In this document: positions 37,861 through 39,514 of the stretch, one piece after another | Layout: every line of letters starts with the position of its first letter | Position numbering within the stretch: the stretch's first letter is position 1 | Assembly: GCA_001789045.1 (NCBI GenBank) | Contig: MFYG01000020.1 | Span: 48,349 to 112,348, forward strand | Reading direction: 5' to 3' | DNA: 64,000 nucleotides | From: Candidatus Peribacteria bacterium RIFCSPLOWO2_12_FULL_55_15 | Lineage (GTDB): Bacteria; Patescibacteriota; Gracilibacteria; Peribacterales; Peribacteraceae | Translations under genes and position numbers: made by a program | The notes under the pieces: model-generated | The model's database searches: none | What the model saw: the letters and a program-made list of their open reading frames with translations, nothing else | What the model was told of the DNA's origin: nothing

Positions 37861-37883
37861 CACAGCATTGTGTAGTAGAGAAG
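37861..37883 (-). other. 3' trailer half of the pre-16S rRNA processing stem
   Basis: 22 of 23 nt are complementary to 39571-39593 in the 16S leader. Confidence 0.75.
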
Positions 37884-38023
37884 GTGAGTCCGAGCCCAGC
37901 ACCTCTGCACACCTTTCGGTGCACAAGGGTGCTGGGGTGCTCCTCGGTCAATCAAAATGCATGATGGCTCCATAAGCACTAACCAGAGCATGTATTTTTC
38001 CAGTGTTTCCTGGTACAGAAACG

Positions 38024-39514
<1,491 letters not shown>

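Follow-up and report, generated by a model that had tools for sequence, protein, structure and literature searches.

The 16S rRNA gene found in the window (the whole stretch of 64,000 nucleotides analyzed here, to whose positions all coordinates refer) carries a 3' tail whose anti-Shine-Dalgarno (anti-SD) core is no longer CCUCC. Our main reading, to which we assign a probability of about 85%, is that this is the single, functional 16S gene of a Peribacteria bacterium (CPR; Peregrinibacteria), uncultured and from groundwater, that initiates translation without Shine-Dalgarno (SD) pairing, and that the anti-SD core was eroded in place. The loss of the anti-SD is already known for Peribacteria; the tail of the window is a newly found, more degenerate form.

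The gene occupies positions 38014..39515 of the minus strand and matches the Rfam model RF00177 (SSU_rRNA_bacteria) at full length (model positions 1-1533, 1477.5 bits). It stands alone, with 23S, 5S and spacer tRNA genes absent throughout the 64-kb window. The gene converges on a SufD-like gene (36839-37645, plus strand) and diverges from rpsF/rpsR (39734 onward, plus strand). The bS6 protein encoded at 39734-40285 has 183 aa, with a long C-terminal extension past the 90-residue Pfam domain, and its gene adjoins that of bS18; these two proteins take part in holding the 3' tail of 16S rRNA in Bacteroidia. Elsewhere in the window, we observed two tRNA genes (51549-51620 and 16245-16328, both on the minus strand) and a class A RNase P RNA (51697-52128, plus strand) with a modest score of 149 bits compared to the gathering threshold of 100. 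The 16S gene of the window is free of the insertions found in several Peribacteria 16S genes. In L062 and L092, the tip of helix 44 is enlarged by about 70 nt; L031, L064, L067, L069 and L070 have insertions as well, and the apparent 16S lengths in insertion-bearing Peribacteria reach up to 1620-1780 nt.

Helix 45 (E. coli 1506-1529) is located at 38027..38050 on the minus strand and reads UAUCCGUAGG-AGAA-CCUGCGGAUG. The initial annotation had described this helix as canonical, which is correct for the stem and not for the loop. All ten standard pairs are present in the window (cmscan), as they are in 37 relatives, while the loop (38036-38039) is AGAA and not GGAA (G1516A), the near-universal helix 45 tetraloop. 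The AGAA loop is common to all Peribacteria and to most Phycisphaerales matches, and both dimethyl-adenosine positions are retained.

Alignment to the SSU covariance model, a check proposed along with the initial annotation, placed a non-canonical tail of 13 nt directly after helix 45. This tail (38014..38026, minus strand; E. coli 1530-1542), with which the mature 16S rRNA is predicted to end, reads GAACGUUUCUGUA, compared to the canonical GAUCACCUCCUUA. In E. coli numbering it runs G1530 A A C G U U U C U G U A1542, from 38026 down to 38014. The RNA following GGAUGG is AACGUUUCUGUACCAGGAAAC, where the model consensus in the Rfam alignment is AUCACCUCCUUU; after ...CUGCGGAUGG the window RNA continues as AACGUUUCUGUA. 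The core at 1535-1539 (38017-38021) is aligned by cmscan as UUUCU, the canonical core being CCUCC. The change from CCUCC to UUUCU amounts to three C-to-U transitions, and A1534G and U1540G are present besides. The absence of GGAGG and AGGAG from the plus strand between 37884 and 38035, noted earlier, was re-checked, and neither motif occurs there.

Relatives were collected by scanning one genome per GTDB species with a helix 44/45 signature pattern. The scan yielded 78 loci, about 55 of which belong to Candidatus Peribacteria/Peregrinibacteria (CPR) and the rest to Phycisphaerales or other Planctomycetota. All Planctomycetota loci of the scan have the canonical GGAUCACCUCCUUUCUAAGGGA. A metagenome scan with an 18-mer gave mostly chance matches in protein genes; the 16S matches were only L088, L091, L092 and L094. 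In Peribacteria, the sequence after helix 45 has the form GGAA(C/U) N N N U C C UUACCAGGGA(G/A).

The comparison of 16S 3' ends of relatives, also suggested initially, showed that among 54 Peribacteria species the CCUCC core is kept in 13 (for example, in the tail AACACCUCCUUACCAGGGAG), while the other 41 have a variant with one or two substitutions. The cores found at the same position of the tail are graded: CCUCC, CUUCC, UCUCC and UUUCC, with UUUCU in the window. UUUCU followed by G, as in the window and in L088, makes the most degenerate tail found in Peribacteria. The Peribacteria tails align without gaps, and every change in the core is a C-to-U transition; the gapless alignment implies that the anti-SD was lost via point substitutions in place. 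Of the two readings given in the initial annotation, the loss of the anti-SD is therefore the one borne out, because the tail is positionally homologous to the canonical one and intermediates occupy the same position in relatives.

The nearest relative recovered, L009, has a 16S identity of 90.6% and keeps GCCUCC...GGGAGC. A neighbor-joining (NJ) tree of the 16S body, which was built on well-occupied columns (16S insertions distort it otherwise) and carries no support values, groups the window with the CCUCC-retaining clade, apart from the GUUUCC group (L062, L092). Since L009 still has CCUCC, the tree suggests that UUUCU in the window is the result of independent erosion on its own branch. 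Ca. Peribacter riflensis was ruled out as the source of the window by its GC content (58.5% vs 52.5% in the window). Given this difference and the best 16S identity of 90.6% to the recovered representatives, the window organism is, by these two measures, a distinct Peribacteria species.

The remains of the tail can pair with the beginning of the trailer. In the window, the predicted hairpin H1 (38005..38022, minus strand) is made of GUUUCU (38017-38022), the loop GUACCA (38011-38016) and GGAAAC (38005-38010). It has 6 bp and a free energy of -5.5 kcal/mol, appears in the minimum free energy (MFE) structure once the context of helix 45 is included, and is predicted to sequester what remains of the anti-SD core. 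A competing hairpin, H2 (38000..38013, minus strand; CCAG-GAAACA-CUGG, -5.7 kcal/mol), is the MFE structure of the isolated 36-mer. H1 and H2 are mutually exclusive and isoenergetic in the window; stronger equivalents of H2 occur in many relatives (CCAGGGA/UCUCUGG, CCAGG/CCUGG). The thermodynamic z-scores of these short tail folds are weak, from -0.85 to -1.9. In one CCUCC-retaining clade (L034, L041, L061, L084) we also observed, about 8 nt past the tail hairpin, a second tail-like GAUCACACCUCG that looks as if the 16S 3' tail had been duplicated in part.

For 37 distinct Peribacteria sequences, RNAalifold predicted helix 45 and a second hairpin, CUCCUU-ACC-AGGGAG, in which nucleotides 1536-1541 pair with the start of the trailer. 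The whole helix is 99% paired. In the window, the register used by the relatives is broken at two pairs, and a one-step shift of the register produces the six pairs GUUUCU/GGAAAC. The support for H1 comes from one perfectly covarying pair, 1536:col46, together with invariant pairs.

We propose from these alignments and folds that the tail may be kept for its part in the folding or processing of pre-rRNA, perhaps in an element with two states, and we infer that the hairpin serves pre-16S folding or 3'-end processing, not mRNA binding. The proposal is consistent with what is seen in F. johnsoniae, where ablation of the anti-SD impairs rRNA processing independently of translation. In its full form, the proposal says that the Peribacteria tail no longer binds mRNA and is only the strand of a hairpin that is kept by compensation while CCUCC decays, and that this hairpin alternates with the downstream one. 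We hold this full form tentatively, at somewhat less than even odds. A literature search, which was not exhaustive, found no published description of a compensated tail-trailer hairpin.

The hairpin could also be non-functional, with the covariation arising from shared ancestry or from GC-to-AT drift in both columns. Indeed, the C-to-U change and the G-to-A change both run from GC to AT, a single pair covaries, the NJ tree is unsupported, and H2 competes with H1 and is often the more stable of the two. On the other hand, 19 sequences have U-A at the pair 1536:col46 and 18 have C-G, with zero mismatches, and the C/U state spans the neighbor-column backgrounds ACC, ACU, AUC, AUU, GCC and GUU; on the unsupported NJ tree, C would have changed to U about three times independently, together with a G-to-A change every time. 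The observed covariation was reached in 0 of 500 column shuffles, and when the partner was slid by 1-3 columns, only 35-50% of the positions were paired. The seven-nucleotide motif CCAGGGA, which lies beyond the canonical 3' end, is nearly invariant among species whose 16S rRNAs differ by at least 10%, and the same hairpin was recovered independently by RNAalifold. We thus consider a non-functional hairpin unlikely, though with a chance that is far from negligible.

The use of SD pairing was assessed by counting GGAG, GAGG or AGGA at positions -18..-4 relative to gene starts, with stretches inside the same genes as the control. Gene starts were taken from a crude caller (longest ORF, greedy non-overlap) or from public calls; the test covered the 64-kb window, with about 50 genes of the genome, and 8-kb loci of relatives. 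In the window, 9 of 50 starts (18%) had such a match, compared to 13.3% internally (p=0.49). The respective values were 30/207 (14.5%) vs 15.1% (p=0.91) for Peribacteria with degenerate tails and 9/74 (12.2%) vs 10.4% (p=0.67) for CCUCC-retaining Peribacteria. An E. coli region, used as a positive control in the same pipeline, produced 22/50 (44%) vs 6.7% (p=1e-8). No SD enrichment upstream of genes was thus observed in the window or in the relatives, whether CCUCC was kept or lost. Among public calls for 18 genes around the 16S gene, a 4-mer SD-like match was present at 5 of 18 starts, and GGAGG at 0 of 18. Enrichment of GGAGG, named at the outset as an observation that would speak against the loss of the anti-SD, was absent within the window and the loci of relatives.

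Because the CCUCC-retaining relatives also show no SD enrichment, SD-independence is, as far as these sequences tell, class-wide and older than the erosion of the anti-SD. The published SD figure of 7% for Ca. Peribacter riflensis agrees with this. A minority of genes may use weak SD pairing. With respect to gene calling, the longest-ORF rule merged a 95-aa Fer2 gene into a 320-aa ORF (window 32989-33951) overlapping a SufC-like ABC gene on the opposite strand; the public calls for this region are L001 8188-8475 and 8488-9246. Such a merger shows that naive start calls are unreliable in an SD-less genome.

One could imagine that the tail has co-evolved with a new SD, carried either by mRNAs complementary to GUUUCUGUA (such as CAGAAAC) or by one special gene, as rpsU in Flavobacteriales, where the rpsU SD varies together with the alternative anti-SDs UCUCA and UCUCU. 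The 14-mer TACAGAAACGTTCC, the complement of the tail, does have 15 matches in the window at no more than 3 mismatches, compared to 4.5 +/- 2.2 in shuffles (for example, at 46099-46112, 44170-44183 and 12246-12259). These near-matches, however, are situated within genes, on both strands, and none of them before starts; their excess is probably a codon-composition effect. Tail-complementary k-mers were found upstream of 13 of 50 starts, with 6 of 50 in the control, and were scattered along the tail. Since they showed no positional enrichment upstream of starts (window, 50 genes), a new SD complementary to the variant tail was rejected. Peregrinibacteria generally lack bS21, and no rpsU was present among the genes examined in the 64-kb window. 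Altogether, we find co-evolution with a new SD improbable.

The k-mers most enriched upstream of starts were ATAC, GTAG(C), TACT and ATACT in the window, and GGAG and AGGA in the E. coli control. TANNNT hexamers form a sharp peak with the first base at -12, which leaves six nt before the start codon. At positions -14..-11 the hexamer was found for 10 of 50 starts in the window (20%, background 4.7%, p=9e-5), for 53 of 280 in the relatives (18.9%, background 5.8%, p=4e-14), and for 1 of 50 (2%) in E. coli. Examples from the window are the starts at 27343, 44339, 44682 and 45330. We considered GTAG(C) as a novel ribosome-binding motif and discarded it, as it is explained by a -10-like TAGNNT at -12 and, at least once, by the TAG stop of the upstream gene. 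Since a hexamer at -12 is placed as a -10 box would be if it drove a leaderless transcript, the promoter-like boxes suggest that these mRNAs are leaderless. The remaining starts, about 80%, presumably have SD-independent initiation regions.

The initial annotation had mentioned an assembly error as a possible explanation of the missing CCUCC. SufB, which is encoded beside the 16S gene, occurs on many public contigs. Six of these, from independent assemblies (three ENA MEGAHIT contigs and three from NCBI: MFXY01, MFYE01, MFYC01), match the window base for base over a stretch of 460 nt that starts in helix 45 and extends into the trailer. The MFX*/MFY* accessions are those of Peribacteria bins from the Rifle aquifer. 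Six identical assemblies exclude an assembly error. The same tail, GGAACGUUUCUGUACCAGGAAACA, is present in a second species, L088 (a metagenome contig), whose final 300 nt of 16S share about 97% identity with the window, with a trailer departing from that of the window by substitutions and a 35-nt insertion.

More broadly, the tail could be an assembly or chimera artefact, or belong to a decaying 16S pseudogene with a canonical copy elsewhere in the genome; rRNA regions of MAGs are often misassembled, and the part of the genome inspected is 64 kb. An artefact is hard to reconcile with identical sequences from two assemblers and with the same tail in a different species, and a pseudogene with 1477 bits across the full SSU model. 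As for a second copy, the complete Ca. Peribacter riflensis genomes have a single 16S gene, and where a single Peribacteria MAG has two contigs with 16S (L015/L026, L033/L055), the variant tail is the same on both. We regard any of these origins as very improbable, and the tail as that of the functional 16S gene.

Further downstream, the trailer is complementary to the leader. Cofolding of a 165-nt leader with a 260-nt trailer paired the trailer arm CACCUUCUCUACUACACAAUGCUGUG (37859..37886, minus strand) with the leader arm CACAGCAUCGUGUAGUAGAGAAGUG (39567..39595, minus strand) in a stem of about 28 bp, interrupted by a single mismatch and a single bulge. Within it, CACCUUCUCU (37877-37886) pairs with leader positions 39567-39577. 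A strong leader-trailer duplex, with energies from -81 to -149 kcal/mol, was predicted for 16 of 16 Peribacteria loci with both flanks. RNase III-type excision usually acts on a long leader-trailer helix of this kind, and the complementarity of the 5' leader and the 3' trailer is, as modeled here, a pre-16S processing helix that would be cleaved. Upstream of the leader arm there is a promoter-like TTGACG-17-TACGAT (39607..39635, minus strand), putative in function and known from a consensus scan, which found 3 sites vs 0.9 expected. Another pairing, predicted between 39640-39662 and 37832-37857, falls upstream of the sole promoter-like site; we treat it as uncertain. The consensus scan found no intrinsic terminator after the 16S gene.

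The 135 nt past the tail align in blocks with the trailers of L088, L091 and L092. The shared blocks are UACAUGCUCUG(G/A), CAUCAUG..UUGAUUGA.CCGAGG, the hairpin at 37890-37947, and the stem strand. This long spacer hairpin, CCGAGGAGCACCCCAGCACC...GGUGCUGGGCUCGG (37890..37947, minus strand), is a predicted fold of the pre-rRNA trailer and is retained in L088 with compensating differences. The trailer also has a conserved boxA-like block, CAUGCUCUGG (37983..37992, minus strand), of putative function. The block, (C)AUGCKCUG(G/A), recurs about 15-30 nt past the tail hairpin in many Peribacteria (L007-L064 trailers), and its boxA-like character is observed although 23S does not follow 16S.

The second reading of the initial annotation, in which a hairpin-bearing insertion of about 135 nt splits helix 45 from the real, degenerate tail GGACUCACCUUCUCU and the mature rRNA ends in CCUUC, is hardly credible: GGACUCACCUUCUCU is present at 37877-37891 as claimed and loosely resembles GGAUCACCUCCUUUCU, but the true homologue of the tail directly follows helix 45 in all 54 relatives, none of which joins helix 45 to a CCUUC tail, the intervening 135 nt match ordinary trailers of relatives block by block, the motif is base-paired with the leader within the 28-bp stem, and the conserved stem sequence of L009 reads GGAAACUUCUCUACUACACAAUGCUGUGAA (GGAAACUUCUCUACUAC), with CACC absent. 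The cofold of 37859-37886 with 39567-39595 makes the CCUUC motif the trailer strand of the leader-trailer helix. Classification as an rRNA intervening sequence was likewise rejected, given the position of the relatives' tail directly after helix 45 and that of CCUUC in the stem.

The erosion of the anti-SD in place could then be pictured as follows. With SD use gone, the anti-SD core would erode where it stands, and the conserved remainder would be a short tail-trailer hairpin, maintained by compensatory changes in relatives. About 135 nt downstream, the trailer would pair with the leader in a long helix for RNase III-type excision. Some mRNAs would be recruited as leaderless transcripts that have a -10 box six nt before the start, and the others by way of SD-independent initiation regions.

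Few bacteria have lost the anti-SD, and the loss is a mark of lineages that locate start codons by other means. Peribacteria present a graded natural series, from CCUCC via CUUCC/UCUCC and UUUCC to UUUCU, with SD usage absent at every stage. Along with the compensated hairpin, the series offers a comparative test of why SD-blind bacteria keep the anti-SD, the candidate reasons being rRNA processing or the translation of a few special genes. If the tail is indeed kept only as a hairpin strand, nature would thereby show that what constrains the anti-SD of SD-blind bacteria, apart from translation, is pre-rRNA folding or 3'-end maturation, and the hairpin might persist as an extra 3'-terminal helix in mature 16S rRNA. 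In practice, gene callers and 16S annotation for Peribacteria CPR genomes should avoid assuming SD start models or a CCUCC 3' end. Neither the class-wide graded series nor the -12 box signature was found reported in the literature, in a search that was not exhaustive.

Among known systems, the closest are the Peribacteria tails already tabulated. Amin et al. (2018) reported 128 taxids that lack a consensus anti-SD, and nearly all of these lack SD as well. Estrada et al. (2024) counted Ca. Peribacter riflensis, with 7% SD, among 'SD-scarce organisms lacking CCUCC'. Variant tails GAACACUUCCUUA are tabulated for Ca. Peribacter riflensis, GW2011_GWB1_54_5 and GWC2_54_8 (Amin 2018; Estrada 2024); the S4 table of Estrada et al. 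(2024), citing Amin 2018, gives GAACACTTCCTTA for P. riflensis and two GW2011 Peribacteria. The GAACGTTTCTGTA of the window and the UCUCC and UUUCC variants are absent from this S4 table. To call both readings unusual, as was done initially, was therefore an overstatement: the loss of CCUCC is rare across bacteria, yet tabulated for Peribacteria and other CPR. The tabulated tails share with the window the class, U1532A, the erosion of CCUCC and SD-scarce genomes. They differ in having one core substitution (CUUCC), compared to three in the window (UUUCU) as well as A1534G and U1540G.

The window also fits class iv of Estrada et al. (2024; see also Amin 2018), as it has helix 45 followed by a CCUCC-less tail that is reproducible and has variant counterparts in related species, with no SD enrichment and no tail-complementary motif upstream of starts in the sequences covered. 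The combination of no anti-SD with no SD enrichment is shared with other CCUCC-lacking CPR, symbiont and Mollicutes lineages (a Parcubacteria subgroup, SR1, Carsonella and haemoplasmas). Those are independent losses, for which we did not find a compensated tail hairpin reported. Tsurumaki et al. (2022) described anti-SD motifs as missing in a Parcubacteria subgroup and bS21 as frequently absent in Peregrinibacteria.

In bacteria of the Deinococcus/Mycobacterium type, as in the window, a -10-like hexamer ending about 6 nt before the start is the top upstream signal instead of SD; TANNNT or TAYACT is the top upstream motif in bacteria rich in leaderless mRNAs (Amin et al. 2018). Bacteria of this type, however, keep the canonical CCUCC, and in the window about 20% of the predicted starts have the box. 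With respect to processing, the pre-16S rRNAs of E. coli and F. johnsoniae are also bracketed by a long leader-trailer helix; in the window, unlike in these species, the trailer arm begins about 130 nt past helix 45 and 23S does not follow.

Flavobacteriales and other Bacteroidia show the same order of events as proposed here: first lineage-wide SD independence, then core transitions in sub-lineages. In Flavobacteriales, too, the tail starts with GGAAC, and the anti-SD is tied to rRNA processing, which is impaired by its ablation in the SD-blind F. johnsoniae. There, however, the anti-SD is sequestered by bS21, bS18 and bS6, and its alternatives UCUCA and UCUCU co-evolve with the SD of rpsU, while Peregrinibacteria mostly have no bS21. 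In the lineage of the window, unlike in Flavobacteriales, the tail co-varies with its own trailer.
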